Below, piece by piece: positions 1-30,867 of a stretch of 32,000 bases of DNA. Each line of letters opens with the position of its first letter. Position 1 is the first letter of the stretch. The stretch spans positions 1,410,001 through 1,442,000 of the forward strand of contig NC_010296.1 of assembly GCF_000010625.1 (NCBI RefSeq), in the 5' to 3' direction. This stretch comes from Microcystis aeruginosa NIES-843. Its GTDB lineage: Bacteria; Cyanobacteriota; Cyanobacteriia; Cyanobacteriales; Microcystaceae. A program made the translations under genes and the position numbers. The notes beneath the pieces were generated by a model. That model was not told where the DNA came from and did not search any database. It was given only the letters and a program-made list of their open reading frames with translations.

Positions 1-1010
1 CTATTATTATCAAGGAAAATTTCGGCGATGCGATTAGTTAATTGTCGATTGGCTAAAGCTCGATCGCCTAGGTAGGGTAGGGGACTAGAAACATTGAGAA
101 AGCTAGTTTTAATAATCGGTTCTAAAGTGATATTTTTCTGACGGGTTAATTCCTGTAATAAATCATGATATTCTTGATAAATATGATCAATTTCTTGCCA
201 AACTCCCCAGCGCAAAAGTATTAACAAAATCAGATAATTACTGTATAACTTTAGGGTTGGAGTTAGACAAATTTCTCGGAATTGATAGGCAGTTATCAAA
301 GAATTATCAAAGTCTTCTGCTAAAATATAGAGGTTAACCAATTGTTCCAAAAGACTCAGATCATTTGGTCTTAATTGCAGACAAAGTTTAATAATTTCCA
401 CTCCAAAAGTGGGACTTTGTTGCTCGTTGGTGACTCGTGCTGCTATCTGAAAAGCTTGCGGGATAAAACTATCGGCTAATTCCTCCAGGTAGGGTAAACT
501 TGCTTGAGCTAAGTCTAAAGTTAATTCATGGGGATATAAAAGACTTTTGAGAACTACATTTAAAAGTAATTCTCGATCGGGATTAGATCTGAGATTCTCT
601 TGAATAGGATAATTAAGTAGTTCTTCAGGATCAAATATTTCTAAATCTAAAGCTAAGTCGAATAAAGCTAATAAATTATTAATTGACTTGGGAACAATTT
701 CCTGTAGATGATAGCGAAAATATTCTACAGCTGCCAGATCACCTTTTCTTTGTTGTCGTCGCGCTTCTGCGTCTAAAACCGCTTCTAATTCTGCTTGCCA
801 TTGCTTAACTTCTTCCAGATTACCTTCGCTTAAAATACTTTGCCACATTACCTGTGCTGCTGCTTCTAAATTTTGCAGAAGATAGGCAACTCCCAAGTAC
901 CAATAGTCAGAAATATTTTCGGAATTGTTATCGATTAGTTCCTCGTAGATTGCCGCAACTTGAGGATAATCTTCGGCAATTAAAGCTTGATAAGCGTCAG
1001 GATGCCACAT
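1..1010 (-). CDS. TPR / SPINDLY-like (GT41 O-GlcNAc-transferase family) protein, N-terminal part; gene runs off the window start
   Basis: Absent from the ORF track because it is open to the window edge. Manual translation from the ATG at 1010-1008 gives MWHPDAYQALIAEDYPQVAAIYEELIDNNSENISDYWYLGVAYLLQNLEAAAQVMWQSILSEGNLEEVKQWQAELEAVLDAEARRQQRKGDLAAVEYFRYHL..., with no stop through position 3 (336 codons checked by hand). The N-terminal YWYLG..LLQ..EA..W pattern resembles cyanobacterial SPY-family TPR glycosyltransferases as I remember them. Confidence 0.6.
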   Translation of the reverse strand, partial: MWHPDAYQALIAEDYPQVAAIYEELIDNNSENISDYWYLGVAYLLQNLEAAAQVMWQSILSEGNLEEVKQWQAELEAVLDAEARRQQRKGDLAAVEYFRYHLQEIVPKSINNLLALFDLALDLEIFDPEELLNYPIQENLRSNPDRELLLNVVLKSLLYPHELTLDLAQASLPYLEELADSFIPQAFQIAARVTNEQQSPTFGVEIIKLCLQLRPNDLSLLEQLVNLYILAEDFDNSLITAYQFREICLTPTLKLYSNYLILLILLRWGVWQEIDHIYQEYHDLLQELTRQKNITLEPIIKTSFLNVSSPLPYLGDRALANRQLTNRIAEIFLDNN

Positions 1011-2067: not shown

Positions 2068-3351
2068 TTAAACCACTTTAGCGATGGCTGCTTCTAGCTT
2101 ATCCATAGCCTCATCTACTTCTGTTTCCGAGACAATTAAAGGAGGTACAAAACGGAGAACTTTCGGACCTGCGGGGGCAATTAATAAACCCTCTGCCAAG
2201 GCTGCATTAACAATAGTAGATGAAACCAACTCACTTTCTGAATTAATTTCCATACCATTAATTAAACCCCAACCGCGCACATCGACAAATAGATGGGGAT
2301 ATTGAGAAGCAATCACGCGTAAACGGCTGCGTAATTGTTCCCCTCGCTGCTGGACATTTTCGAGAAGATGATCCCGTTCAATGGTTTGTAATACTGTTAA
2401 AGCTGAGGCACAAGCGAAAGGATTACCTCCAAAGGTACTCGCATGACTACCCGGTTCAAACACATCACAGAATTTTCTGCACATCATCGCACCGATGGGA
2501 ATACCACCCGCTAAACCCTTAGCAGAAGTGAAAATATCCGGTTCCACTCCTAAATTCTCATAACCCCAGAGTTTACCAGTTCTTCCGACTCCCACCTGTA
2601 CTTCATCAAAGACAAGCAAAATGTTATTTTCGTCGCAAATTTGCCGTAAACGTTGGAAATATTCGATATCCCCTGGACGAACTCCCCCTTCACCCTGCAA
2701 GGGTTCCAACATAATCGCAGCCACACGACGATTACCCTCATCGAGATCAGCGATCGCATTTTCCACCGCTTCGATATCATTATAGGGAATATAGGCAAAC
2801 CCCGGCATCAGGGGTTCAAAGTCTTTTTGATACTTCGGTTGACCGGTTGCGGTGATGGTGGCTAAAGTCCGACCGTGAAAACTAGCGTGAGCGGTTAAAA
2901 TAACTGGCTGTTCGAGGAAATCTAGCACCGTATGGGCATATTTCCGTACTAATTTAATCGCCGCTTCGTTCGCTTCCGCACCAGAATTACAGAAAAAGAC
3001 TTTATCAGCGCAGGAATGATCGACAATCCATTTAGCTAGTTCCCCTTGTTCGGGAATATAGTATAAATTCGAGACATGATGGAGTTTTTGGATTTGCTGA
3101 CTAACCACTTCAATTAAAGCAGGGTGCGCGTGACCGAGGGTACAGGTGGCAATTCCTGCGACAAAATCAAGGTATTGTTTCCCGGAAGTATCCCAGAGAA
3201 GACAGCCTAACCCTTTGGCGATCGCAATGGGAAAACGACCATAAGTATTCATCACATAGCTGTTAAAACTATCTCGATCGAAGGGTTGATTCGGGTTTAA
3301 ATTGGGAGTGGGATCAACTAGGGTTGGTTCTAAAAGGGTTTCTGGACTCAC
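2068..3351 (-). CDS. argD: Acetylornithine / class-III aminotransferase
   Basis: 427-aa ORF with a GTG start. Class-III PLP aminotransferase motifs are present: VMNTYGRFP, CNSGAEANEAAIKL, LVFDEVQVGVGRTGKLW, and SAKGLAGG carrying the PLP lysine. Confidence 0.9.
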   Translation of the reverse strand: MSPETLLEPTLVDPTPNLNPNQPFDRDSFNSYVMNTYGRFPIAIAKGLGCLLWDTSGKQYLDFVAGIATCTLGHAHPALIEVVSQQIQKLHHVSNLYYIPEQGELAKWIVDHSCADKVFFCNSGAEANEAAIKLVRKYAHTVLDFLEQPVILTAHASFHGRTLATITATGQPKYQKDFEPLMPGFAYIPYNDIEAVENAIADLDEGNRRVAAIMLEPLQGEGGVRPGDIEYFQRLRQICDENNILLVFDEVQVGVGRTGKLWGYENLGVEPDIFTSAKGLAGGIPIGAMMCRKFCDVFEPGSHASTFGGNPFACASALTVLQTIERDHLLENVQQRGEQLRSRLRVIASQYPHLFVDVRGWGLINGMEINSESELVSSTIVNAALAEGLLIAPAGPKVLRFVPPLIVSETEVDEAMDKLEAAIAKVV

Positions 3352-4536: not shown

Positions 4537-4947
4537 TTAAAGAATCGATAAAAAATCGGCTGGTAGCATTGCGGGAACAGGGGCAGCGGCAAAATCTCTT
4601 AGGTTTCGCATTATGATTATTTCTAGCTTTTCCGATTCAGCAACGGCACTGGTAACGGCATCTTCAAAATCTTTCATCTGACTTGCCAATGCTTGCCTAA
4701 TTATTGCATCTGTCACCCTAGCAACTTGCAAATTCTCTAGAAGAATTATCACCAACTTTCTTGAGCTTTCTCTTCCATTTTCTCTAGACAAAATATAATA
4801 AATATTAGTGACGGCATGACCAGAAATATATCCTTGAGTTTTACCTGTCTTAACTGTATTTAATGCTTGTACAGATGCTTGAAAATGTGGTTCACGCTTA
4901 CCCAAAACATCTAGCAATACATCACTATCGAATAGGACTCGTTTCAC
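4537..4947 (-). CDS. vapC: PIN-domain ribonuclease, type II toxin (VapC-like)
   Basis: 136-aa ORF with a GTG start. N-terminal LFDSDVLLDVL acidic motif typical of PIN domains, plus later conserved acidic residues. Overlaps the upstream ORF by 4 nt (GTGA). Confidence 0.75.
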   Translation of the reverse strand: MKRVLFDSDVLLDVLGKREPHFQASVQALNTVKTGKTQGYISGHAVTNIYYILSRENGRESSRKLVIILLENLQVARVTDAIIRQALASQMKDFEDAVTSAVAESEKLEIIIMRNLRDFAAAPVPAMLPADFLSIL

Positions 4948-5906
4948 CGATACTTCTCCACTAAATAATCAATATACGATTCTTTTGGGTCTTCTGGTCT
5001 TAAATCGACAACCCCCACTAAGTCTCTTGTCCAAGGATCAAGATCGCTTAAGTCATCTGTTAGGGAATGAGAAGTAGTTTCTGAGGATACATTCTGACGA
5101 AAAACACGCCCATATTCTAATGCTTTCTCAAAAACCTCCTGATCAGAAATTGATCCAGAAAGATTATCTAACCAGTTTTCAGACGAAGATTTTTCAGTTT
5201 CTAAATCGACCAAACCTGTTAAATTTTGTGTAGAGGCATCAATATCATTGAAATTATCTGTTAGGGAATGAGAGGTAGTTTCTGAGGATACATTCTTAGG
5301 ATTAAATCGCTCTTGAATTCTGAAAATTATTAAACTGTAATAGGCTCTCAGTTGGGTGACTAAAGATTTGTCAGTATCTTGGAAATATTCGGTTATAGTA
5401 CGATGAGAAACCGATAGAGCATTTTTAGCTCCCTGGTAAATTTGCTCTAATTCTGAATCGGCAAACATATCAATAAACACATCTATCGTTTCCGAGAGAA
5501 TGCGTGAACCTTCCACCACTCTGATTAAATCGGCTTTTTCCTCACCAGTCTTTCCCTCATTGATCTGAGCAAGGCTGATAAATAATTGATTATAGGCAGT
5601 AATTTGATTAGTAAATTGGTCTATATATTGGATTAATTCCAGTGCCGAAACCTCATTCTTATATTGTTCCCATACCTGAAACCATAGTTGATTAATTTGA
5701 CAAAATATATCGGCTCTTGCTTGATAAGTTTTAGAGTTATCCTTAACTTGCTCAAATAAAATTTTAGTTTCTTGTAGTAAATTATCCAGTATGATTCGAT
5801 CAGAATCGGTGACAATTCGATCGAGTTTATCTGTAATATCTTGCAGATTTTCTAACAAAAATTGTCCTAAATTTTCCCGTTCGACTGAACTTGGCAGACT
5901 ATTCAT
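4944..5906 (-). CDS. Hypothetical 320-aa protein in the antitoxin position of the PIN gene
   Basis: The ORF track shows 4944..6041, but the first 45 codons are the antisense read of the IS left end; the same peptide recurs in ORF 29466..29681. The native start is the ATG at 5906-5904 (MNSLPSSVERENL...). Removing the IS in silico restores AGGAGAGG-8nt-ATG. The C-terminus carries a 67-aa duplicated module (NVSSETTSHSLTD...). Confidence 0.6.
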   Translation of the reverse strand: MNSLPSSVERENLGQFLLENLQDITDKLDRIVTDSDRIILDNLLQETKILFEQVKDNSKTYQARADIFCQINQLWFQVWEQYKNEVSALELIQYIDQFTNQITAYNQLFISLAQINEGKTGEEKADLIRVVEGSRILSETIDVFIDMFADSELEQIYQGAKNALSVSHRTITEYFQDTDKSLVTQLRAYYSLIIFRIQERFNPKNVSSETTSHSLTDNFNDIDASTQNLTGLVDLETEKSSSENWLDNLSGSISDQEVFEKALEYGRVFRQNVSSETTSHSLTDDLSDLDPWTRDLVGVVDLRPEDPKESYIDYLVEKYR

Positions 5907-7227
5907 CGAAAATTTGGGTCTGAAACCCCGTCGTTCTACGACGGCTTTACTGTTAAATATTAGAACATTTACGAAATATATGCTAGAATGTGAGACATGG
6001 AAAAAGCCTATTCTTACCGATTTTACCCCACACCAGAACAAGAGTCGCTATTGCGGCGCACTTTGGGCTGTGTAAGATTGGTTTACAATAAGGCACTCCA
6101 TCTCAGAACACAAGCTTGGTATGAAAGACAAGAAAGAGTAGGATATACTGAAACTTCTTCAATGTTGACCGAGTGGAAAAAGCAAGAAGAATTAGACTTT
6201 CTCAATGAAGTAAGCTGTGTACCTTTACAACAAGGCTTAAGACATTTACAAACAGCTTTTACTAATTTCTTTGCTGGTCGTACTAAGTATCCTAACTTTA
6301 AGAAAAAACATCAGGGAGGAAGTGCCGAATTTACCAAATCTGCTTTTAAATTTAAAGACAAACAAATCTATTTAGCTAAATGCACAGAACCTTTACCTAT
6401 TCGGTGGTCAAGACAAATACCAGACGGATGTGAACCAAGCACAGTAACAGTCAGATTACATCCTTCTGGACGTTGGCATATTTCAATTAGATTTGATGAC
6501 CCAACGATTAAGCCTCTACCAGTAACAGATAAAGCCATCGGAATTGACTTAGGAATTAGTAGCCTCGTGATTACCAGCGATGGCGATAAAGTATCTAATC
6601 CCAAGCATTTTAAAAAGCATTATCGGAGACTGCGAAGAGCATCTAAAAGTCTTTCTCGAAAACAGAAAGGGTCAAAAAATCGGGAAAAAGCGAGAATCAA
6701 AGTAGCCAAGATTCACGCTCGAATCACCGATAACAGAAAAGACCATTTACACAAGCTAACCACTCAATTAGTTCGTGAAAACCAAACGATTGTGGTTGAG
6801 AATTTAGCCGTCAAGAATATGGTCAAAAACCCGAAATTATCTCAGGCAATATCTGATGTAAGCTGGGGAGAAATTACCCGACAATTAGCCTATAAATGCC
6901 GTTGGTATGGGAGAAATTACATCGAAATAGATAGATGGTTTCCTAGCTCTAAAAGGTGTAGTAATTGCGGGTATATTGCCCTTGAAAATGCCGTTAAATG
7001 TTCGAGAGTGGGACTGTCCAGACTGTGGGACTCACCATGACCGAGATATTAACGCCAGTAAAAATATTTTGGCCGCAGGGCTTGCGGTGTCAGTCCGGGT
7101 CGCGACTATAAGACCAGAACAGAGTAAATCTGTTAAGGCAGGTGCGAAAAATCCTTCGGGAAAGAAACAGAAACCTAAATCGTGAGGTTTGGGAATCACC
7201 GTCCGTTCACGGCGGTGAGGATGTCAA
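5907..7227 (+). mobile_element. IS200/IS605-family, IS1341-type (tnpB-only, no tnpA) insertion sequence, copy 1
   Basis: Collinear with 29547..30867. Both are preceded by TCAT (5903-5906 and 29543-29546) and both end in ...GGATGTCAA. The flanks diverge immediately outside these ends. The left end has a subterminal hairpin CCGTCG-ttcta-CGACGG. The right end has the hairpin CACCGTCCG-ttca-CGGCGGTG. No terminal inverted repeats and no Y1 transposase gene, as expected for this family. Confidence 0.9.
5997..7185 (+). pseudogene. tnpB: TnpB (OrfB) RNA-guided endonuclease, split by a +1 frameshift into 5997..7040 and 6976..7185
   Basis: N-terminal MEKAYSYRFYPTPEQ and the GIDLG RuvC-I motif. The first zinc-finger CxxC (CSNCG) lies in the upstream frame. 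The second CxxC and RuvC-III ([18 protein letters not shown]) lie in the +1 frame. Together the pieces give a TnpB of about 395 aa. Confidence 0.85.
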
Positions 7228-7362
7228 CGTATTTACCTCTCCTAAAACTGACGATCAAACAGAAATGAGTAGTCAAAATCATCAGCCCTAAACCTCGATT
7301 GTAACAATTTTAGGGTCTAAATCCTGTTTAAAAGGTATAGGAGAGGGGGAATTATAAATTAT

Positions 7363-7442
7363 GAAGTGGGGAAGTGGGGAAGTGGGGAAGTGGGGAAGTG
7401 GGGAAGTGGGGAAGTAGGGAAGTGGGGAAGTAGGGAAGTGGG
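7363..7442. repeat. Tandem octamer array (GAAGTGGG) x10
   Basis: Counted by hand: 10 units, two of them the variant GAAGTAGG. Confidence 0.95.
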
Positions 7443-7460: not shown

Positions 7461-7513
<53 letters not shown>

Positions 7514-7639
7514 TTGACTCGGAGACTACTGGCTCCTTGCTCCTCAATCTAGCGTCTGTGAGGAATTGAGAAATTGAGGATGATTTGATAGGATGTTAGT
7601 ACAATCGGGGAATAGTAAAGAAAAAACCCCCTATTGCTC

Positions 7640-10073: not shown

Positions 10074-11735
10074 ATGTTTGATTTTAGCCACTATTACCCC
10101 TACGCCGAATTAGTTTCTTTCCTCAAAAACCTAGCCTCATCCTATCCTAATTTAATTAGCCTCACCTCGATCGGTAAAAGCTACGAAAATCGAGATATCT
10201 GGTTAACTACCCTAACAAATCAAGCCACAGGCCATTATTTAGAAAAACCTGCCTATTGGATCGATGCTAACACCCATGCGGGGGAAGTAACAGGCTCTGC
10301 CGTCGCTCTCTACACTATCTCCCATCTTTTGCGCCAATACGGTCATAATTCCCAAATTACCAGACTTCTTGACCATTACACTGTCTATATTTTGCCGCGA
10401 TTAGCCGTGGATGGAGCGGAAAAATATCTCACTACTCCCTATCTGTTACGCTCGAGTATTCGCCCCTATCCCCACACGGATGAGAAACCGGGGCTATATC
10501 CTGAAGATATTAACGGCGATGGTTTAATTCTACAAATGCGCCAAAAAGATACCTGTGGCGCTTGGAAAATTTCTGAACAAGATCCTCGCATTATGGTGCG
10601 TCGCGAACCGGAGGAATTTGAGGGAACTTTTTACACTTTGCTCACCGAAGGTTTAATCCGCGATTACGATGGCTATAATTTTACCACTGCCCCCACCCTA
10701 GAGGGCCTGGATTTTAACCGCAATTATCCCGTTTATTGGGTTCCTGAAGGGGAACAACAGGGGGCCGGAGATTTTCCTTTTTCGGAGCCAGAAACCCGTG
10801 CAGAAGCGGAATTTTGGGCAAATAACACTAATATTAATGGCTTCGTTACCTATCATACCTATTCAGCAGTCATGTTGCGTCCCTATAGCACCCATCCCGA
10901 TGAATATTTCCCCGTGGAAGACTTAGAAATGTATAAATATATTGCTGACAAGGGAAAAGCAATGACTGGTTATGAATGCGTTTCTGTCTATCACGATTTT
11001 CGTTATCATCCCAAAGAAGTGACTAACGGTGCCATGGATGATTACGGTTACGATCATTTTGGTTGGTATGGTTTTACGGTGGAGTTATGGGATGCACCCA
11101 CCCAAGCGGGAGTGAAAAAAGATGATTATATTCAATGGTTTCGCTGGCATCCTTTGGAAGATGAATTGAAGTTACAGCGTTGGAATGATGAGAATTTGGC
11201 GGGAAAGGGTTTTATTAATTGGCAAAGTTTTGATCACCCCCAATTGGGAGAGGTGGAAATTGGCGGTTGGGACTTTAAAAATGTCTGGCAAAATGCCCCA
11301 GAAAAGTATTTACCAGATTTATGTGAGAAACAATGTCAGTTTACTATTGCCCATGCTTTAATGTCACCTCTTTTAGCTATCTCTCGTCTTGATCTTAAGT
11401 CGGAGGGAAATGGTATTTATCATCTGGTTTTACAGTTAGAAAATCAGGGATTTTTACCCACTTATACCAGTAAAAAGGCACTGGAAAGAAAGATCGTTCG
11501 TCCCATTCAAGTCAAGTTAAATTTAGCCGATGAGGTGAGTTTAATAGTGGGAAAATTAGAGCAGGAAATCGGTCACTTAGAAGGGCGATCAAATAAAGTA
11601 TATAGTAGCCTCGCTCATGGTTTAGATTATCGCTGTACGGTGGAATGGGTGATTAAAGGAGTTTCTGGTCAAGAAATCGAGATTATCGCTATAGCTGAAA
11701 GAGCCGGAACAGTCAGACAAAAAGTGATTTTATAG
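10074..11735 (+). CDS. M14-family zinc metallocarboxypeptidase
   Basis: Zinc-ligand HxxE motif (DANTHAGEVTG), a downstream His ligand region (VTYHTYS), and the N-terminal YYPYAELVSFLKNL typical of the M14 fold. The track starts at TTG 10062; ATG 10074 is preferred. Confidence 0.8.
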   Translation: MFDFSHYYPYAELVSFLKNLASSYPNLISLTSIGKSYENRDIWLTTLTNQATGHYLEKPAYWIDANTHAGEVTGSAVALYTISHLLRQYGHNSQITRLLDHYTVYILPRLAVDGAEKYLTTPYLLRSSIRPYPHTDEKPGLYPEDINGDGLILQMRQKDTCGAWKISEQDPRIMVRREPEEFEGTFYTLLTEGLIRDYDGYNFTTAPTLEGLDFNRNYPVYWVPEGEQQGAGDFPFSEPETRAEAEFWANNTNINGFVTYHTYSAVMLRPYSTHPDEYFPVEDLEMYKYIADKGKAMTGYECVSVYHDFRYHPKEVTNGAMDDYGYDHFGWYGFTVELWDAPTQAGVKKDDYIQWFRWHPLEDELKLQRWNDENLAGKGFINWQSFDHPQLGEVEIGGWDFKNVWQNAPEKYLPDLCEKQCQFTIAHALMSPLLAISRLDLKSEGNGIYHLVLQLENQGFLPTYTSKKALERKIVRPIQVKLNLADEVSLIVGKLEQEIGHLEGRSNKVYSSLAHGLDYRCTVEWVIKGVSGQEIEIIAIAERAGTVRQKVIL

Positions 11736-14859: not shown

Positions 14860-15657
14860 ATGCTAGAACTCTACCAATTTGAATTATCTGCCTATTGTGA
14901 GAAAGTCCGTCTCATCCTCGACTATAAAGGACTTGCCTATAAAAAAAGGGACGTGGTGCCGGGGGTGGGACAATTGGAATTATTCCGTCTTTCCGGACAG
15001 CGACAGGTTCCCGTCCTCAAGGATGGCGATACTTATATTGCTGACTCGACGGAGATTGCTTTTTATCTCGATCGCAAGTATCCTGAAAAACCAATTATCC
15101 CCACAGATCCCCTACAACGGGGTCAATGTTTATTAATCGAAGAATGGGCCGATGAATCCCTGGGATTAAAAGGAAGAACCGCTTTTCTCGGCGCTTTTGC
15201 CCAAAATCAAAACTTTCGTACCGCTTTTTTACCCCAGGAAACTCCCGGTTTTATGCGCTTGTTGCTGGGTTCTATGCCGGGGGAATTAATTGATATTTTG
15301 GGGGCAGGTGTAGGTCTGGGAAAAGATGCTATCAATACAGCGAAAAAGGGGCTACAACAGGATTTAGAGGCTTTGAACCTCATTTTAACCAATCGTCCCT
15401 ATTTAGTCGGTGATCAGCCCACTTTAGCCGATTTAGCCGTGGCGGGATTAAGTGTACTGCTTCAGTTTCCCCAGGGTTCCTATCTCAACTTGCCCAGGGA
15501 ATTGCAAGGCAAGGGGATTCCGGGGTTAGCCGATAATAGCGCCTACGAGGGCTTTTTTGCTTGGCGCGACCGTCTTTATAGTCAATACCGTCAAACTATC
15601 ACCCCGGGAAGTTCCACCCCTCCTATCGATTCCCCCAACTCCATCCAGATTGAATAG
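14860..15657 (+). CDS. Glutathione S-transferase family protein
   Basis: N-terminal thioredoxin-like GST fold (LELYQFELSAYCEKVRLILDYKGLAY...QVPVLKDGD..IADSTEIAFYLD) and a C-terminal helical domain (PTLADLAV). Confidence 0.8.
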   Translation: MLELYQFELSAYCEKVRLILDYKGLAYKKRDVVPGVGQLELFRLSGQRQVPVLKDGDTYIADSTEIAFYLDRKYPEKPIIPTDPLQRGQCLLIEEWADESLGLKGRTAFLGAFAQNQNFRTAFLPQETPGFMRLLLGSMPGELIDILGAGVGLGKDAINTAKKGLQQDLEALNLILTNRPYLVGDQPTLADLAVAGLSVLLQFPQGSYLNLPRELQGKGIPGLADNSAYEGFFAWRDRLYSQYRQTITPGSSTPPIDSPNSIQIE

Positions 15658-15676
15658 CAGCGCTTGACTAGGCTGG

Positions 15677-15783
15677 TGGGGTTTGGGGTGTAGGGTGTGG
15701 GGTGTAGGGTGTGGGGTGTGGGGTGTGGGGTGTAGGGTGTGGGGTGTGGGGTGTAGGGTGTGGGGTGTAGGGTGTGGGGTGTG
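15677..15783. repeat. Tandem heptamer array (GGGGTGT / AGGGTGT), ~15 units
   Basis: Counted by hand. The array ends exactly at the 5' end of the first group II intron. Confidence 0.95.
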
Positions 15784-16568
15784 GTGCGATTCGTTGGCTA
15801 GAAACTAGACAGTAAGACGTTTAGAGGATTAGCCGCTTGGTAAATGTAGTACCTTGATAACTTTATAACCCTACAGGTGCGGGTTAGTAATAACCTTAGT
15901 CCTGTCCTCTAGATGCCTAGAGTGACGGCATTTCCTGCTGCTTTAGACTTGGTACATCTGAGGTAGTGAGCGAGGAAAAAAAAGCGGTATCTGATAGCCT
16001 AAATCAGAAACCCGTTGAGCCAGAACCTATGGATAGCCCTGGGGCGAAGATACGAATTAACCATCGTCAACACCCACGAGCCAAAAGGCTGACAGGCTCG
16101 AAACAAAAGTTAACAGAGTTGGGGCTGATAGCTCATACCACTATCAGTAAGGCATTCCCGTTACTCTGTTGTGGACAGTATCATCCTAAGGGTTCAACCA
16201 ATGGTTATAGGGAACGAAGTAACCCTGATTGACTCTGCCCGTTCGGGGCAGTAGGAAACCATCCGCAAGTCAATAGAGGGAGAGGATGTCCTTAAAAGCC
16301 AAGGCTTTGAGTAATATCAAAGATATGCTGACAAAGGACGGGTAACTAGGAAGTCTAAGCAACAATCAACGGTCATATACGCCCTAAAACCAACAATCTT
16401 GTCTGGTGGGGATACAGCCAAGAGGGTTGAATAGACAAGGAAATAATAATTCCCATTATTATTCTACTAATGACAGTAGCCTAGTTACTCAGGAGCCGGA
16501 TACGGCGAAAGTCGTAAGTCCGGTTTTGAAGCAGGGGGTGGGAAGGCGACTTCCTGCTCTACTGTAAC
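15784..16568 (+). ncRNA. ORF-less group II intron, copy A (785 nt)
   Basis: 5' GUGCG at 15784. Domain V at 16493-16526 is GAGCCGGAUACGGCGAAAGUCGUAAGUCCGGUUU: 34 nt, AGC triad, 2-nt bulge, GAAA tetraloop. Domain VI has the helix GGAAG-GCGA-CUUCC and an unpaired A (16561) 7 nt before the 3' terminal ...CUGUAAC. Domain IV is reduced to the hairpin AATAATAAT-tccc-ATTATTATT (16442-16463). No reverse-transcriptase ORF. Confidence 0.85.
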
Positions 16569-17353
16569 GTGCGATTCGTTGGCTAGAAACTAGACAGTAA
16601 GACGTTTAGAGGATTAGCCGCTTGGTAAATGTAGTACCTTGATAACTTTATAACCCTACAGGTGCGGGTTAGTAATAACCTTAGTCCTGTCCTCTAGATG
16701 CCTAGAGTGACGGCATTTCCTGCTGCTTTAGACTTGGTACATCTGAGGTAGTGAGCGAGGAAAAAAAAGCGGTATCTGATAGCCTAAATCAGAAACCCGT
16801 TGAGCCAGAACCTATGGATAGCCCTGGGGCGAAGATACGAATTAACCATCGTCAACACCCACGAGCCAAAAGGCTGACAGGCTCGAAACAAAAGTTAACA
16901 GAGTTGGGGCTGATAGCTCATACCACTATCAGTAAGGCATTCCCGTTACTCTGTTGTGGACAGTATCATCCTAAGGGTTCAACCAATGGTTATAGGGAAC
17001 GAAGTAACCCTGATTGACTCTGCCCGTTCGGGGCAGTAGGAAACCATCCGCAAGTCAATAGAGGGAGAGGATGTCCTTAAAAGCCAAGGCTTTGAGTAAT
17101 ATCAAAGATATGCTGACAAAGGACGGGTAACTAGGAAGTCTAAGCAACAATCAACGGTCATATACGCCCTAAAACCAACAATCTTGTCTGGTGGGGATAC
17201 AGCCAAGAGGGTTGAATAGACAAGGAAATAATAATTCCCATTATTATTCTACTAATGACAGTAGCCTAGTTACTCAGGAGCCGGATACGGCGAAAGTCGT
17301 AAGTCCGGTTTTGAAGCAGGGGGTGGGAAGGCGACTTCCTGCTCTACTGTAAC
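16569..17353 (+). ncRNA. ORF-less group II intron, copy B (785 nt), directly abutting copy A
   Basis: Same sequence shifted by exactly 785 nt; I found no differences by eye. Domain V is at 17278-17311. The junction reads ...CUGUAAC|GUGCGAU.... Confidence 0.85.
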
Positions 17354-17376
17354 GGGAGATTAAATAAAAGCAATCT

Positions 17377-17415
17377 ACTGATCACTGATCACTGATCACT
17401 GATTACTGATTACTG
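17377..17415. repeat. Tandem heptamer array (ACTGATC / ACTGATT), ~5.5 units
   Basis: Read directly. The array runs up to the stop codon (17416-17418) of the convergent response-regulator gene. Confidence 0.9.
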
Positions 17416-18105
17416 TTAAGATTCCCGTAAAACGTAGCCCACACCACGCACGGTATGAATGAGGCGTTTTTGACCACCAGCCTCCATCTTCAGGCGTAAA
17501 TAGCGAATATACACCTCAATAACGTTTGATTCTCCTTGAAATTCGTCTCCCCAGACATTTTCGAGAATTTGATCCCTCGATAATACTTCTTTGGGGTGAA
17601 TCATGAGGTAGCGCAGCAGTTCAAATTCCTTCATCGTCAACTCAATATTTTTGTTTTTATAGGAGAGACGACGACTGGCTAAATCTAATACTAAGTCACC
17701 GAAACCCAATTGTTCGGGGGTAATTTCCAGAGGTTGCAGGTAAAAACGGATTAATTTGAGAAAAGATTGCGAATTATAGGGTTTGAGAAAATAATCGTCG
17801 GCTCCCGCTTCCAAACAGGCGAGACGTTCTTCTAGGGTTTCTTGAGATACTAACAAAATAATATAAACGCGACTTCCCTGGGAACGTAAACGACTACAAA
17901 AATTCACACCGGCCTCCGCTGCGAGGAAGCGATCGAGTATAATCATCGCTGGCTGCCAACTTTTCACTTCTGGGAAAGCGATATCAATGCTAGGCACGAT
18001 CAGGGGACGATAACCTGCTTCTTTCAAGTCCGCACTAGCTAGTTTAGCGATATTCTCCTCAATTCCCACCAAGAGAATTGAAGAACTCGGAACGGATGTA
18101 CTCAT
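17416..18105 (-). CDS. OmpR/PhoB-family response regulator with a non-canonical acidic pocket (possibly NblR-like)
   Basis: Receiver domain with the phospho-acceptor context MIILDRFL, the S/T position LLVSQET and FLKPY. The N-terminal DD pair is replaced by LLVGIEEN. The C-terminal winged helix (LTMKEFELLRYLM...RLIHTVRGVGYVLR) is clear. Confidence 0.8.
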   Translation of the reverse strand: MSTSVPSSSILLVGIEENIAKLASADLKEAGYRPLIVPSIDIAFPEVKSWQPAMIILDRFLAAEAGVNFCSRLRSQGSRVYIILLVSQETLEERLACLEAGADDYFLKPYNSQSFLKLIRFYLQPLEITPEQLGFGDLVLDLASRRLSYKNKNIELTMKEFELLRYLMIHPKEVLSRDQILENVWGDEFQGESNVIEVYIRYLRLKMEAGGQKRLIHTVRGVGYVLRES

Positions 18106-18656: not shown

Positions 18657-18683
18657 AAAGTTAAGTAAAAATCTATGAGGGGT

Positions 18684-18735
18684 CAGTTATCAGTTATCAG
18701 TAATCAGTTATCAGTAATCAGTCATCAGTCATCAG
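18684..18735. repeat. Tandem heptamer array (CAGTTAT / CAGTAAT / CAGTCAT)
   Basis: Read directly, ~7.5 units. Confidence 0.9.
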
Positions 18736-18764
18736 TTTTTTCTCCCTGCTCCCCTACTCCGTCT

Positions 18765-18906
18765 CCCCACACCCTACATCCCACACCCCACACCCCACAC
18801 CCCACACCCCACACCCCACACCCCACACCCCACTTCCCCACTTCCCCACTTCCCCACTTCCCCACTTCCCCACTTCCCCACTTCCCCACTTCCCCACTTC
18901 CCACTC
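18765..18906. repeat. Two abutting arrays: (CCCCACA)n at 18765-18827, then (CCCCACTT)n at 18828-18906
   Basis: Read directly. These are reverse complements of the GGGGTGT and GAAGTGGG units seen elsewhere in the window. Confidence 0.95.
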
Positions 18907-19262
18907 TGCCATAACTACTCCTACATACTTTGTGCTTTTTGTCAAAAAAACTTTTTCTTTGCAATAAAACTACACAAAAAAAAGATCATCGTTGTGGGTG
19001 AAATTGACTGATTTACCTGTCTTAATTGGGATTACCTTGTAGGTGTGGCAAGGGTTTCAACCATTGCTGTCCAAAAAAGCCAAGAATAACCCATTATGAA
19101 ATTCAGTAAAATCGCTGTAACCATTGTAACATCGTTGTTAAATAAAAATCTTTCTCAATTAATTCTTAAGAATTTGTAAATATTGCGGAATGTTAATTTA
19201 AATATTCTCAAGCTTTTGGGGTCAATAAATAATTTTTGCTTATCTTTGTCGAACATTGAGTT

Positions 19263-19304
19263 AGGAGATAGGAGTCAGAAGTCAGGAGTCAGGAGTCAGG
19301 AGAT
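19263..19304. repeat. Tandem heptamer array (AGGAGTC / AGGAGAT), 6 units
   Basis: Read directly. Followed by AGATTATTTTTATTTATTCTTCC (19301-19323), the exact reverse complement of the 23-bp core at 7441-7463. Confidence 0.9.
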
Positions 19305-19323
19305 TATTTTTATTTATTCTTCC

Positions 19324-19402
19324 TACACCCCACACCCCACACCCTACACCCCACACCCCACACCCTACACCCCACACCCCACACCCCACACCCCACACCC
19401 AC
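19324..19402. repeat. Tandem heptamer array (CCCCACA / CCCTACA), ~11 units
   Basis: Read directly. The array ends 7 bp before the ATG at 19410. Confidence 0.95.
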
Positions 19403-19409
19403 TACCCCA

Positions 19410-20309: not shown

Positions 20310-20449
20310 ATAAATCTAAAAACCTTGTTGGGTAAGACTTTTAGACTTTTTGGAAACCAAAAAGTGCCAGATCCCGGAGTGATCGGGTGGAAAATTCAGG
20401 TACTTTTTCCCTGAAAATTAGGTAATTGACCCCCTCAAAATCGCTAAAA
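20305..20449 (+). repeat. Dispersed ~145-bp repeat, copy X (partner at 28320-28463 on the minus strand)
   Basis: By-eye alignment with the reverse complement of 28320-28463 gives roughly 80% identity. Both begin GCTGAATAAATCTAAAAACCTTGTTGG. Both contain TTTTTCCCTGAAAATTAGGTAATTGA. Both end in a CCCCACA array. Confidence 0.8.
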
Positions 20450-20530
20450 CCCTACACCCTACACCCCACACCCCACACCCCACACCCCACACCCCACACC
20501 CCACACCCCACACCCTACACCCTACACCCT
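20450..20530. repeat. Tandem heptamer array (CCCCACA / CCCTACA), ~11.5 units
   Basis: Read directly. Confidence 0.95.
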
Positions 20531-20761: not shown

Positions 20762-22924
20762 ATGGGTAGAGTAGTAGGCATTGATCTAGGGACAACTAAC
20801 TCCGTCGTCGCCGTGATGGAAGGCGGAAAGCCAGTGGTCATCGCCAACTCGGAGGGCATGAGAACCACCCCTTCTGTGGTCGGTTTTAATAAAGATGGGG
20901 AGTTAGTGGTCGGTCAAATGGCCCGGCGACAAGGGGTACTCAATCCCCAAAACACCTACTATGGAGTCAAACGCTACATAGGTCGTCGCTACTCGGAATT
21001 AAACCCCGAATCGAAGCGCGTCCCCTACACCATCCGCCGGGACGAGATGGGCAATATCAAAATTAAATGCCCCCGTCTGCAAAAAGAATTCGCCCCCGAA
21101 GAAATTTCCGCCCTAATTTTACGCCGATTAGCCGAAGAAGCCAGCCGTTATCTGGGGGAAGAAGTTACCGGGGCCGTAATCACCGTCCCCGCCTATTTTA
21201 ACGACTCCCAACGTCAAGCCACCCGGGATGCGGGCCGAATTGCGGGGTTAGAAGTGATGCGGATTCTCAACGAACCCACCGCCGCCGCCCTGGCCTACGG
21301 TCTCGATGAACAAGAAAGCAAGAAAATCCTCGTTTTTGACCTGGGAGGCGGTACTTTTGATGTTTCTATCCTGGAAGTGGGTGACGGCGTTTTTGAGGTG
21401 AAAGCCACCAGTGGCGACACCCAATTAGGCGGAAATGATTTCGATAAAAGAATCGTCGATTGGTTAGCCAATCAATTTTTGGAACAGGAAGGCGTGGAGC
21501 TGCGCCAAGACCGGCAAGCCCTACAAAGACTCACAGAAGCGGCAGAAAAAGCCAAAATAGAACTGTCTGGTGTCAGCGTCACCGATATTAATCTGCCCTT
21601 TATCATCGCCACGGAAGACGGACCCAAACACATCGAAACTCGCCTGAGTCGGGCCCAATTTGAGGAATTATGCGGCGATTTAATCAGTCGTCTCCGTCGT
21701 CCTCTCAAACGCGCCCTTTCTGATGCCGGTTTGTCCCCCGTCCAACTAGACGAAGTGGTACTGGTGGGCGGCGGCACGCGGATGCCGGTGGTTAAGGATT
21801 TGGTGCGGAGTTTTATCGATAGGGAACCCAATCAAAATGTTAACCCTGATGAGGTTGTAGCGGTCGGGGCGGCTATTCAAGCGGGAATTTTGGGCGGCGA
21901 GGTCAAAGACGTGCTGCTCCTCGATGTTACCCCTTTATCCTTGGGTTTAGAAACCATCGGCGGTGTGATGAAAAAGTTAATCCCCCGCAATACCACTATT
22001 CCCGTCCGCAGAGCTGACCTTTTTTCCACTTCCGAAAATAATCAAACTGTGGTGGAAATCCACGTTTTGCAGGGGGAAAGGGAAATGGCCAGCGATAATA
22101 AATCCCTGGGACGTTTTAAATTAACCGGTATCCCCCCCGCGCCCCGGGGTATTCCGCAAGTGCAGGTGTCCCTCGATATCGATGCTAACGGTATTCTACA
22201 AGTCACCGCTAGGGATAAAATGACCGGACGGGAGCAAAGTGTCACCATTCAAGGCGCTTCTACCCTCAGCGAAGGGGAAATTAACCGCATGATCGGCGAT
22301 GCTGCCCGATTTGCCGAAGCAGATCGTACCCGTCGCGAAAAGGTCGATAAACGCAATCGCGCCCGCTCTCTGGTGGATCAAGCCCAACGACGCTTAAAAG
22401 ATGTTACTCTCGATTTTGGTAATGAGTTTACCCGTTCCTATCGTCGTCAAATTGAGTCTTTGAGTACGGAAATTATCGACGCTTTGGAGAAAAATGATGA
22501 CCGTCGCCTTGATCGCGCCCAGGCGGATCTACAGGATGTTATCTATGAATTAAATCGCGAGGTACGGCTACAATACGACGAGGAAGATGAGGGCTTTTTT
22601 AGCGCTATTCGCAAGACTTTTACCGGGGATAAGGAAGATGATCTTCCCTCCGAACCGCGCCGCGATCGTTATCGCCAGGATTATCGTCCCAGTACACCGG
22701 GTTATCAAAGTGATTATCGACCCAATTATTCGGCTAATCAAGATAGTTATCGCCCCCGCAATCAGGACAATTACTACAATGGCCGCGATAGCGATTGGCA
22801 AAGTTCCCCCCGTTCGGAGGAAAAAAGTTATAACAATAGTAAAAGTAACCGCAGCGGCGGCAATCGTTCCCGCAATATTCCCCCCCAAAATAACTGGGAT
22901 GATGACGATGATGATTGGTTTTAA
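20762..22924 (+). CDS. dnaK: Hsp70 chaperone DnaK, paralogue with a long C-terminal low-complexity tail (DnaK3-type)
   Basis: [19 protein letters not shown] and the [10 protein letters not shown] ATPase motifs. About 110 aa beyond the canonical lid are rich in D/Y/R/N/S and end in [11 protein letters not shown]-protein gene follows, matching the dnaK3-dnaJ3 arrangement known in cyanobacteria. Confidence 0.9.
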
Positions 22925-22989
22925 TCAGTGATCAGTAAACAGTGATCAGTAAACAGTAAACAGTAATCAGTAAACAGTAATCAGTAAAA
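22924..22989. repeat. Tandem heptamer array (ATCAGTA / AACAGTA / ATCAGTG)
   Basis: Read directly. The array starts at the dnaK stop codon. Confidence 0.9.
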
Positions 22990-23054
22990 AGACAGTGGGA
23001 AACTACTATTTAATACTGCTCGCTTAATACATACTGCTCACTTAGAACTCAAAT

Positions 23055-23114
23055 CTGATCACTGATAACCGATAACTGATAACTGATAACTGATAACTGA
23101 TAACTGATAACTGA
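23055..23114. repeat. Tandem heptamer array (CTGATAA), ~8.5 units
   Basis: Read directly. The array ends 5 bp before the J-protein ATG. The unit is close to the reverse complement of the 22924-22989 unit. Confidence 0.95.
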
Positions 23115-28235: not shown

Positions 28236-28282
28236 GGTTGGCAAACTATAAATAGGGTTTGCGGCAAAAAGTTTTTCGGTGG

Positions 28283-28319
28283 GGGTAGGGTGTGGGGTGT
28301 GGGGTGTGGGGTGTGGGGT
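28283..28319. repeat. Tandem heptamer array (GGGGTGT), ~5 units
   Basis: Read directly. Adjoins dispersed-repeat copy Y. Confidence 0.9.
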
Positions 28320-29265: not shown

Positions 29266-29546
29266 GAGTTATACCAAGTAAAAAGTAAAAGGGGAAATAA
29301 GCTCAACATACCGCCGCTCGGCGTTGCGCTGGCAGAAGAAAGACAAGGCCGATTTTATCACGATGGATGTCAGCTAGTTAAGCTGTTCTTAATTCAAATT
29401 GCTTGTTGAGATCAGGCAAGGGGGGGCTAATCTCAGAATAAGCGGTTTAAATACGTCTTAGCTTATCACTTGAAATGCCCACGCGGATCACAAAATTGGC
29501 CAATTGTCAATAGGGTTTGAGATGCTCTCACCCTGTCGCTCGTCAT

Positions 29547-30867
29547 CGAAAATTTGGGTCTGAAACCCCGTCGTTCTACGACGGCTTTACTGTTAAATAT
29601 TAGAACATTTACGAAATATATGCTAGAATGTGAGACATGGAAAAAGCCTACTCGTTCCGATTTTACCCCACACCCGAACAAGAGTCGCTATTGCGGCGCA
29701 CTTTGGGCTGTGTAAGATTGGTTTACAACAAAGCTCTCCATGTCAGAACACAAGCATGGTACGAAAGACAAGAAAGAGTAGGCTACGCTCAAACTTCTTC
29801 AATGCTAACCGATTGGAAAAAGCAAGAAGAATTAGACTTTCTCAATGAGGTAAGCTGTGTACCTTTACAACAAGGGTTAAGACATTTACAAACAGCTTTT
29901 ACTAATTTCTTTGCTGGTCGTACTAAGTATCCCAACTTTAAGAAAAAACATCAAGGAGGAAGTGCCGAATTTACCAAATCAGCCTTTAAATTTAAAGACA
30001 AACAAATCTATTTAGCCAAATGCACAGAACCTTTACCTATTCGATGGTCAAGAAAAATACCAGAAAGCTGTGAACCAAGCACAGTAACAGTCAGATTACA
30101 TCCCTCAGGACGTTGGCATATTTCAATTAGATTTGATGACCCAACGATTAAGCCTTTACCAGTAACAGATAAAGCCATTGGAATTGACTTAGGAATTAGT
30201 AGCCTCGTGATTACCAGCGATGGCGATAAAGTGTCTAATCCCAAGCATTTTAAAAAGCATTATCGGAGACTGCGAAAGGCCCAAAAAAGCCTTTCTAGAA
30301 AACAGAAAGGGTCAAAAAATCGGGAAAAAGCAAGAATCAAAGTAGCCAAGATTCACGCTCAAATCACCGATAGCAGAAAAGACCATTTACATAAGCTAAC
30401 CACTCAATTAGTTCGTGAAAACCAAACGGTTGTGGTTGAGAACTTAGCCGTCAAGAATATGGTCAAAAACCCGAAATTATCTCAGGCAATATCTGATGTA
30501 AGCTGGGGAGAAATTACCCGACAATTAGCCTATAAATGCCGTTGGTATGGAAGAAATTACATCGAAATAGATAGATGGTTTCCTAGCTCTAAAAGGTGTA
30601 GTAATTGCGGGTATATTGCCCTTGAAAATGCCGTTAAATGTTCGAGAATGGGACTGTCCAGACTGTGGAACACACCATGACCGAGATATTAACGCCAGTA
30701 AAAATATTTTGGCCGCAGGGCTTGCGGTGTCAGTCCGGGTCGCGACCATAAGACCAGAACAGAGTAAATCTGTTAAGGCAGGTGCGAAAAATCCTTCGGG
30801 AAAGAAGCAGAAACCTAAATCGTGAGGTTTGGGAATCACCGTCCGTTCACGGCGGTGAGGATGTCAA
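29547..30867 (+). mobile_element. IS200/IS605-family, IS1341-type (tnpB-only) insertion sequence, copy 2
   Basis: Same length and ends as copy 1. Preceded by TCAT (29543-29546) and ends in GGATGTCAA (30867). The 90-bp 5' leader and 42-bp 3' trailer show no differences by eye, while the tnpB 5' half differs at several percent of positions. Confidence 0.9.
29637..30825 (+). pseudogene. tnpB: TnpB (OrfB) RNA-guided endonuclease with the same +1 frameshift as copy 1 (ORFs 29637..30680 and 30616..30825)
   Basis: 347-aa and 69-aa ORFs. There are 13 mostly conservative replacements relative to copy 1 in the upstream part. The downstream 69-aa peptide is identical. Confidence 0.85.

Follow-up and report, generated by a model that had tools for sequence, protein, structure and literature searches.

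A seamless tandem of ORF-less group II introns in a heptamer repeat array of Microcystis aeruginosa NIES-843

Introduction

Two identical 785-nt group II introns without an open reading frame (ORF) follow each other head to tail, with no spacer nucleotide, in an intergenic region of Microcystis aeruginosa NIES-843 (contig NC_010296.1). How could a second copy come to lie exactly at the edge of the first? A preliminary description of this DNA had argued that such a junction is expected for a circularized intron or a rolling reverse transcription product and not for two independent retrohoming events. We analyzed the 32-kb stretch around the pair (positions 1,410,001 to 1,442,000 of the contig, here called the window) together with public contigs and loci, designated by L-numbers, that were fetched for comparison; coordinates are given in window numbering. 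The unit was found to be a recently active, nonautonomous retroelement located in arrays of a heptanucleotide repeat, and the pair was probably created by a second retrohoming event at the 5′ junction of a resident copy.

Each unit is a complete group II intron

Sequence comparison and a repeat search of the two units gave 0 mismatches and a spacer of zero. The repeat did not extend leftward past position 15784 and extended rightward by 1 nt (G). The seam between the copies reads ...CUGUAAC/GUGCGAU... (junction string CTGCTCTACTGTAAC/GTGCGATTCGTTGG; here and below, the slash marks an intron boundary), and no ORF runs across it.

15784..16568, plus strand: intron copy A, 785 nt (the later arrival under the favored model)
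16569..17353, plus strand: intron copy B, 785 nt, identical to copy A (the first arrival under the favored model)
16554..16583, plus strand: head-to-tail junction, ...CUGCUCUACUGUAAC/GUGCGAUUCGUUGGC..., read directly

The Rfam model RF00029 (Intron_gpII), which covers domains V and VI (DV and DVI), matched positions 16491-16568 and 17276-17353 on the plus strand with 55 bits (E = 2e-8), above its gathering score of 40. The group-II-D1D4-2 model gave a sub-threshold match in each unit (26.7 bits versus 36), and a DV model for the plastid ndhA/ndhB introns reached 41.7 bits, below its own threshold. The intron ends (5′ GUGCG...GUAAC 3′) satisfy the consensus 5′ GUGYG and 3′ AY. The following elements could be located.

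16493-16526 (A) and 17278-17311 (B), plus strand: DV, 34 nt, GAGCCGGAUACGGCGAAAGUCGUAAGUCCGGUUU, with the AGC triad, a 2-nt AA bulge, and a GAAA loop
16529-16565 (A) and 17314-17350 (B), plus strand: DVI with a GCGA loop
16561 (A) and 17346 (B), plus strand: branch A, unpaired, 8th nucleotide from the 3′ end
15790-16218 (copy A), plus strand: DI, closed by unit positions 7-12/430-435
~16223-16280 (copy A), plus strand: DII, from the fold
~16288-16339 (copy A), plus strand: DIII, from the fold
~16340-16490 (copy A; unit ~557-707), plus strand: DIV, ~150 nt, branched, including an AT hairpin, no ORF
16026..16032, plus strand: CCUAUGG, half of an 11-nt-type GAAA-tetraloop receptor, with the partner CCUAAG at 16185-16190, read from the sequence

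The unit folds with an energy of -259.5 kcal/mol, compared to -218.5 ± 8 kcal/mol for shuffled sequences (z = -5.1). An Alifold consensus of 15 sequences (the unit and 14 relatives) displayed DI helices with many compensatory changes, all of which are kept in the window copy. In the helix 78-87/420-429, 8 of the 10 pairs were compensatory, and only 1 of 150 cells was unpaired. The two helices that flank the tetraloop receptor (240-244/408-412 and 247-251/400-405) are conserved and likewise show compensatory changes. From established knowledge of group II introns, CCUAUGG/CCUAAG is likely the zeta receptor for the GAAA loop of DV.

No ORF for an intron-encoded protein (IEP) was detected in DIV; blastx and tblastn yielded no similarity to reverse transcriptase (RT), and the longest ORFs had no Pfam match. 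The longest ORF of the unit (88 aa, 15966-16232) is located inside DI, also lacks a Pfam match, and is spurious. Each unit is thus a complete, ORF-less group II intron with all six domains.

Most of what the preliminary description had stated about the units held up: the two identical copies without a spacer, the GUGCG start, the position and architecture of DV (both read directly here and matched by RF00029), the DVI with its GCGA loop and unpaired A, and the expectation that the domains would be recognized by Rfam models and fold, which the RF00029 match and the DI fold shared with 14 relatives bear out. The same is true of its observations that the introns interrupt no gene and that the window encodes no maturase or RT (Pfam and tblastn). 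Its account of DIV was right in calling the domain ORF-less but not in calling it a bare AT hairpin, since the hairpin is part of a branched domain.

In subgroup IIB, EBS3 (exon-binding site 3) is found in an internal loop of subdomain ID and pairs with position +1 of the 3′ exon (PMC8643678). The Microcystis unit contains an EBS2, and its relatives encode IEPs; homologs of one of these carry RT, maturase, and endonuclease domains. By these sequence features, we classify the intron as IIB-like (chloroplast-like).

The intron is strain variable and inserts precisely

The introns are situated between a GST-like gene and a convergent response regulator gene.

14860..15657, plus strand: GST-like gene, 265 aa (Pfam GST_N_3/GST_C_2), upstream of the introns and in the same orientation
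15676..15783, plus strand: heptamer array GTGGGGT/GTAGGGT, the 5′ exon and target (TRF, EBS pairing, empty-site alleles)
17354..17415, plus strand: 3′ exon GGGAGATTAAATAAAAGC..., followed by an ACTGATC array; intron-binding site 3 (IBS3) is G17354 (empty-site alleles)
17416..18105, minus strand: convergent OmpR-type response regulator gene (Pfam Response_reg and Trans_reg_C)

An identical GST protein is encoded on many public contigs, including NCBI assemblies, and the gene order of these contigs agrees with the window. Nine syntenic loci with the GST and response regulator genes were empty. They read ...GGGGTGTG/GGGAGATTAAAT..., i.e., ...GGGGTGTG/GGGAGA..., which corresponds to the two window flanks joined together with nothing missing or duplicated. 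Four loci (L006, L020, L079, and L080) contained exactly one copy at the same position, with 99.1 to 100% identity and no target duplication. One copy was also found in L078, where the 3′ flank is as in the window and the 5′ flank is different. The spurious 88-aa ORF led to copies at four other loci (L074 to L077) that are identical at 785/785 positions; this ORF was recorded on 7 contigs, every one of which was single copy. Further insertion sites were found in L021, L034, L052, and L060. In one metagenome-assembled genome (MAG) of Microcystis aeruginosa, nine contig ends finish in the 3′ part of the intron, each with a different 3′ flank, which points to nine or more copies in this genome. 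This MAG was the sole species-representative genome (one genome per species) that contained the exact 33-mer of DV.

Because the element is polymorphic for presence and absence and occurs as identical copies at many sites, it is a recently active, nonautonomous, multicopy retroelement. The empty and single-copy alleles fix both of its ends. They rule out a possibility raised in the preliminary description, namely that the unit represents only the 3′ part of a larger ORF-containing intron.

Two of the intron copies are interrupted. In L030 (3296-4670), an intron copy is split at unit position 113-115 by an ~1.1-kb element with a transposase that appears IS630-like by reading of its translation only. 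In L021 (12471-13867), the intron breaks off after ~140 nt; next comes an ORF of 384 aa, which by the same kind of reading resembles an ISL3 transposase. In L005 (10799-10975), an ABC transporter operon takes the place of the response regulator gene after the GST gene. With L078 and L005, the site of the heptamer array and intron looks like a rearrangement breakpoint between strains.

The exon-binding sites read two successive heptamers

All copies were located within arrays of the heptamers GGGGTGT/AGGGTGT. All of the ~15 sequenced 5′ flanks end with RGGGTGTRGGGTGTR, and all 3′ flanks begin with GG (mostly GGG). The pairing elements of intron and target are as follows.

15770-15775, plus strand: IBS2, GGGTGT, exon positions -14 to -9
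15778-15783, plus strand: IBS1, GGTGTG, exon positions -6 to -1
16070..16075 (A) and 16855-16860 (B), unit 287-292, plus strand: EBS2, ACACCC, six Watson-Crick pairs with exon positions -14 to -9
16134..16139 (A) and 16919-16924 (B), plus strand: EBS1, CAUACC, pairs with exon positions -6 to -1 (GGUGUG)
16176 (A) and 16961 (B), unit 393, plus strand: candidate EBS3, C, in the internal loop of subdomain ID
16045 (A) and 16830 (B), unit 262, plus strand: alternative candidate EBS3, C, in an internal-loop column

EBS1 is placed in the 9-nt terminal loop of a hairpin (16124-16148; unit 341-365), whose stem (341-347/358-365) contains 6 pairs with compensatory changes. Together, EBS1 and EBS2 pair with two successive heptamers. 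An exon this rich in G and U can pair with many sequences; therefore, the assignments were checked against the relatives. In the DI alignment, the EBS1 and EBS2 columns of the ORF-containing relatives covary with their exons (for example, intron AACCU with exon AGGUU, and intron AGCC with exon GGCU), and the 2-nt spacing between the two exon-binding targets is the same.

The nucleotide at position +1 is G at every insertion site, and EBS3 must therefore accept G. For the candidate columns 393 and 262, 15/20 and 16/20 introns showed a Watson-Crick match to +1, counts that are confounded by lineage structure. The variable nucleotide of a CGU-N-A motif just 5′ of EBS2 was also considered as EBS3 and was rejected, as it did not covary with +1.

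The complete target pattern, GGGTGTRGGGTGTRG (IBS2, the 2-nt gap, IBS1, and G at +1), matches positions 15770-15784, i.e., the 5′ exon and G1 of copy A. It occurs 42 times in five arrays of the window (either strand), and only one of these sites is occupied.

The intergenic regions of the window are crowded with tandem arrays of 7 to 8 nt that are built from several unrelated units (for example, 7363-7442, 7461-7520, 17377-17415, 18683-18737, 18765-18905, 19258-19409, 20449-20529, 22922-23114, and 28279-28319). In seven loci (L012, L014, L016, L017, L019, L034, and L077), the GGGGTGT array is followed at the 3′ flank by a shared sequence of ~50 nt, TTTTACCGATTTTGAGGnnGTCAnTTACCTAATTTTCAGGGAAAAAGT. 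This shared sequence suggests that the heptamer arrays belong to a dispersed repeat or a MITE-like (miniature inverted-repeat transposable element) element.

ORF-containing relatives are distant

Since neither unit encodes an IEP, the protein that mobilizes the intron is presumably encoded elsewhere in the genome. Seven group II RTs have been counted in M. aeruginosa NIES-843 (PMC8934634). It is established that ORF-less cyanobacterial introns can rely on the maturase of another intron (PMC4649490, PMC12584367). Within the window, no RT or maturase gene was found by Pfam, by the gene/Pfam table of the syntenic L001, or by tblastn with the IEP of a relative; the same IEP gave no tblastn match in any of the fetched Microcystis loci.

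A metagenome scan showed that the 22-mer at the 5′ end of the intron is common to a wide family of cyanobacterial introns that contain an ORF and occupy unrelated sites. The ORF-containing relatives share ~55 to 61% identity in DI with the Microcystis unit, occur in other cyanobacteria, and encode IEPs of 580 to 625 aa. Homologs of the L067 IEP carry PF13655, PF00078, PF08388, and PF01844 (RVT_N, RVT_1, GIIM, and HNH). Among the plasmids of PLSDB, only short, distant matches from Nostocales were obtained. The hunt for an IEP-encoding relative suggested at the outset has thus yielded distant, ORF-containing introns outside Microcystis and nothing closer.

Two features of these relatives were noted in passing. 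In nine of them (L043, L045, L053, L031, L027, L025, L051, L048, and L062), the IEP frame runs on through DV and DVI and stops 5 to 6 nt before the 3′ splice site, and the coding sequence consequently overlaps the catalytic core. Furthermore, three contigs each display two Intron_gpII matches to DV/DVI on the same strand, about 1.6 to 3.5 kb apart, and these may represent neighboring or nested introns in other cyanobacteria.

L027: paired Intron_gpII matches at 10685-10784 and 7212-7288
L040: paired Intron_gpII matches at 1042-1141 and 4538-4614
L063: paired Intron_gpII matches at 3140-3217 and 4792-4870

The tandem probably arose by retrohoming into the resident 5′ junction

We propose the following route to the tandem. 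The intron would be excised from read-through transcripts, for which the GST-like gene is the likely source; no terminator-like site was found on the plus strand between this gene and the introns, and the promoter and terminator scans gave nothing that exceeded the shuffle expectation. The excised RNA would be mobilized by an RT/maturase supplied in trans from elsewhere in the genome, would reverse-splice into DNA between ...GGGUGUG and GGG..., and would then be copied back into DNA. A resident intron does not destroy this target. As the intron, like every 3′ exon, begins with G, the resident junction keeps IBS2, IBS1, and IBS3, and the boundary between the 5′ exon and the resident intron would offer the RNA all of the positions that it reads, from -14 to +1. 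The likely EBS3, a C in an internal loop of subdomain ID, would form a pair with +1, which is invariably G. If a second intron retrohomed into this boundary, it would come to lie immediately upstream of the resident one, and the seamless junction would read ...GUAAC/GUGCG.... Copy A, with a suitable 5′ exon and with G as its +1 nucleotide, would be expected to splice first, and the resulting single-intron precursor would then splice again.

This route has an experimental precedent. The IIB1 intron EcKTE56.groEL forms chromosomal tandems in E. coli by a second integration at the boundary of the 5′ exon and G1 (PMC12584367, Mob DNA 2025). Tandems made up 22.4% of the integrants of a delta-ORF intron, 4.2% of those of the full-length intron, and ~3% of intron-containing long reads; the junction has the form intron 3′ end/GTGCG and was explained by pairing of EBS3 with the resident G1 (PMC12584367). 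The Microcystis pair agrees with these tandems in its IIB-type intron, in the zero-spacer head-to-tail arrangement with the junction form intron 3′ end/GUGCG, in the upstream copy that possesses the canonical 5′ exon, and in the proposed use of G1 as IBS3. The two cases differ in setting. The EcKTE56.groEL tandems were obtained in a laboratory mobility assay and in reads of the native host, at the groEL stop codon, their only target, and through a noncanonical U-G pair, whereas the Microcystis tandem is a natural chromosomal allele whose canonical +1 nucleotide is already G (a full match), with thousands of alternative targets and an IEP that is presumably encoded elsewhere.

These findings change the interpretation of the seam. 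The assertion in the preliminary description that the junction speaks against two retrohoming events does not stand, given that G1 preserves the target and that the process has been demonstrated for a IIB1 delta-ORF intron (PMC12584367). Its further argument, that copy B has an unrelated 5′ exon made of intron sequence, carries no weight: with the upstream copy as the presumed later arrival, a mismatching exon in front of copy B is to be expected. A circular or rolling RT origin is no longer needed to explain the junction, and the argument that the junction demands such an intermediate is removed. We therefore favor, as the most probable reading, an ORF-less, mobile IIB/chloroplast-like intron that is tuned to heptamer arrays and that became a tandem by a second retrohoming event at the resident 5′ junction.

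Several observations weigh against this reading. The order of arrival is unreadable from the sequence because the two copies are identical. The occupied array offers about 5 to 6 equally good target sites, and with so many equivalent targets a random second strike exactly at the junction is a priori rare; the reading requires some local bias or an ascertainment effect from the scanning of many windows. The E. coli system had no target left except the junction (PMC12584367). In addition, every natural 3′ exon has G at position +2, where the tandem junction has U, and the junction would be a poorer site if +2 matters to the IEP. For EBS3, there are two candidate positions, neither of which is firmly assigned. 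No second tandem was found: none of the upstream flanks of 54 metagenome loci contained an intron 3′ end, and the junction 29-mer was absent from viral contigs. Short-read assemblies collapse or break identical 785-nt tandems, as is visible in the MAG contig ends, and single-copy alleles may therefore hide tandems. Finally, a close ORF-containing parent is missing from the material searched. The exact DV 33-mer recovered only ORF-less copies from the one Microcystis MAG, the Microcystis hits of the 5′ 22-mer metagenome scan were all ORF-less, and the best 120 homologs of a relative's IEP belonged to other cyanobacteria (the named ones all filamentous) and included none from Microcystis.

Alternative origins of the pair

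End-to-end template switching is a known activity of group II RTs, and circles of intron RNA are likewise known. The pair could accordingly stem from a single concatemer event, an alternative that we consider rather unlikely. During target-primed reverse transcription, the RT might reach the 5′ end of its intron RNA template and continue at the 3′ end of a second intron RNA. Alternatively, it might copy a circular intron RNA, possibly for more than one round, and homologous recombination would then carry the product into a resident copy. The observed tandem is exactly what a monomer circle would yield by Campbell-type integration. The spacing of exactly zero and the 100% identity of the copies fit such an event, as does the fact that many equivalent heptamer targets nearby were open to an independent second insertion, and PMC8934634 names template switching among RT activities. 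However, the junction shows none of the added or lost nucleotides that are common in template switching and in intron circles, and extra repair or recombination steps would be required. A chromosomal tandem of such origin is undocumented in the literature searched, whereas retargeting of the junction is documented (PMC12584367). That the dimer is the genomic footprint of a concatemeric intron intermediate, and with it natural evidence for a circle/concatemer branch of mobility in bacteria, seems doubtful to us, and we rank a specialist for tandem repeats as more likely. If the dimer did arise as a concatemer, its 1,570 nt could be excised from the 5′ site of copy A to the 3′ site of copy B and could spread as a unit.

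The 100% identity of the copies, the tendency of a multicopy element to break short-read assemblies, and the lack of two copies in any other assembly of the locus would also be consistent with an assembly artifact, in which an assembler or scaffolder duplicated a single real copy. The boundaries of the duplication, however, coincide exactly with the intron ends. If two contigs ending in the repeat had been joined, the seam should still contain flank common to both (heptamers or GG), but it has none. Moreover, synteny is normal on both sides, and a known biological mechanism yields the exact junction. An artifact is therefore improbable.

Replication slippage or unequal crossing-over could produce an ordinary tandem duplication independently of intron mobility, but we regard this origin as very improbable. 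In its favor, the DNA is repeat rich and rearranged between strains (L005 and L078). Yet, the boundaries share only 1 nt of microhomology (G), an unequal exchange between heptamer arrays would have left heptamers separating the copies, and a chance coincidence of both breakpoints with splice sites is very unlikely.

Least credible of all is that the pair is a domesticated free-standing ribozyme (an RNA of the HYER type that cuts DNA or RNA, possibly as a dimer) and not a selfish insertion: the unit is ORF-less, compact, structurally intact, and intergenic, but its strain-variable presence and identical copies mark a recently spreading element and not a conserved gene, its splicing signals (GUGCG, the branch A, and the exon pairings) are all retained, and HYERs are class IIC RNAs with one 6-nt site, in contrast to this IIB-like intron with EBS1 and EBS2.

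Relation to known group II elements

HYERs are class IIC, ORF-less RNAs with a single 6-nt recognition site that are defined by hydrolytic cleavage (Liu et al. 2024, cited via PMC11754743 and PMC12990946). The Microcystis element resembles them in being a compact, ORF-less, group II-derived RNA. It differs in its IIB-like class, in its EBS1 and EBS2, which read 12 nt (12+1 with EBS3), in its full set of splicing signals, and in its mobile insertion. Tested as a HYER, it lacks the class IIC affiliation and the single site of ~6 nt, with two exon-binding sites and IIB/chloroplast-like relatives instead. The HYER analogy drawn in the preliminary description is not tenable for an IIB-like insertion with two exon-binding sites that is polymorphic among strains.

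A closer parallel is provided by the dnaN introns of Trichodesmium (PMC4649490), which are also chloroplast-like (IIB), have lost the ORF from DIV, are present in several related copies per genome, and presumably rely on an IEP from another locus. Unlike the Trichodesmium introns, which interrupt housekeeping genes, the Microcystis family was found only in intergenic heptamer arrays, and exact-match probes revealed no close ORF-containing sibling. Target-specialized lineages, such as the IIC introns at terminators and attC sites and the IIB1 introns at the groEL stop codon, share with it the use of a recurring, harmless sequence feature in place of genes. In Microcystis, this feature is a short tandem repeat, which is read by ordinary EBS1 and EBS2 over two units.

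Two arrangements with a superficial likeness to the tandem were considered and rejected. Circularly permuted group II introns have the domain order V-VI-I-II-III-IV around a circularized exon (PMC8637638), and the middle of the tandem does read DV-DVI and then DI-DIV. Both units are complete and in standard order, though; a single standard copy is present at the same site elsewhere, and the inner spacer is zero. Twintrons likewise bring two introns into direct contact, but here both introns are complete and neither is nested in the other.

ORF-less mobile group II introns and tandem integration via a regenerated target are both already known, and no new RNA class or function is revealed by the locus. 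The only mildly new aspect is the targeting of heptamer arrays, a new niche for an ordinary mechanism. We found no description of this Microcystis family, or of a group II family matched to heptanucleotide or STRR (short tandemly repeated repetitive) arrays, in the literature searched, an absence that is no proof of novelty. This family may be the first group II lineage to be described as a specialist that uses arrays of short tandem repeats as landing pads throughout the genome. It adds to bloom-forming Microcystis a recently active, nonautonomous group II family whose guides are tuned to the organism's own heptamer arrays, and these arrays thereby become landing pads for a retroelement and possibly hot spots of rearrangement. 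On the favored reading, the locus would be a natural case of chromosomal tandem integration, a process so far demonstrated for a single intron system in E. coli, and the regenerated site is a perfect match here compared to a wobble match there. A compact IIB ribozyme of 785 nt with a defined 12+1-nt target could also be of use in mobility and targetron-type work.

Other mobile elements in the window

Two TnpB/IS605-OrfB genes are present on the plus strand of the window (5997-7040 and 29637-30680). They encode proteins of 347 aa each that are 95% identical and contain the Pfam domains OrfB_IS605, HTH_OrfB_IS605, and Cas12f1-like_TNB. One of the two genes is adjoined by a XisH/XisI gene pair (PF08814 and PF08869; 31056-31795). 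A DNA repeat (5903-6202 and 29543-29842) begins ~95 nt upstream of either TnpB gene.

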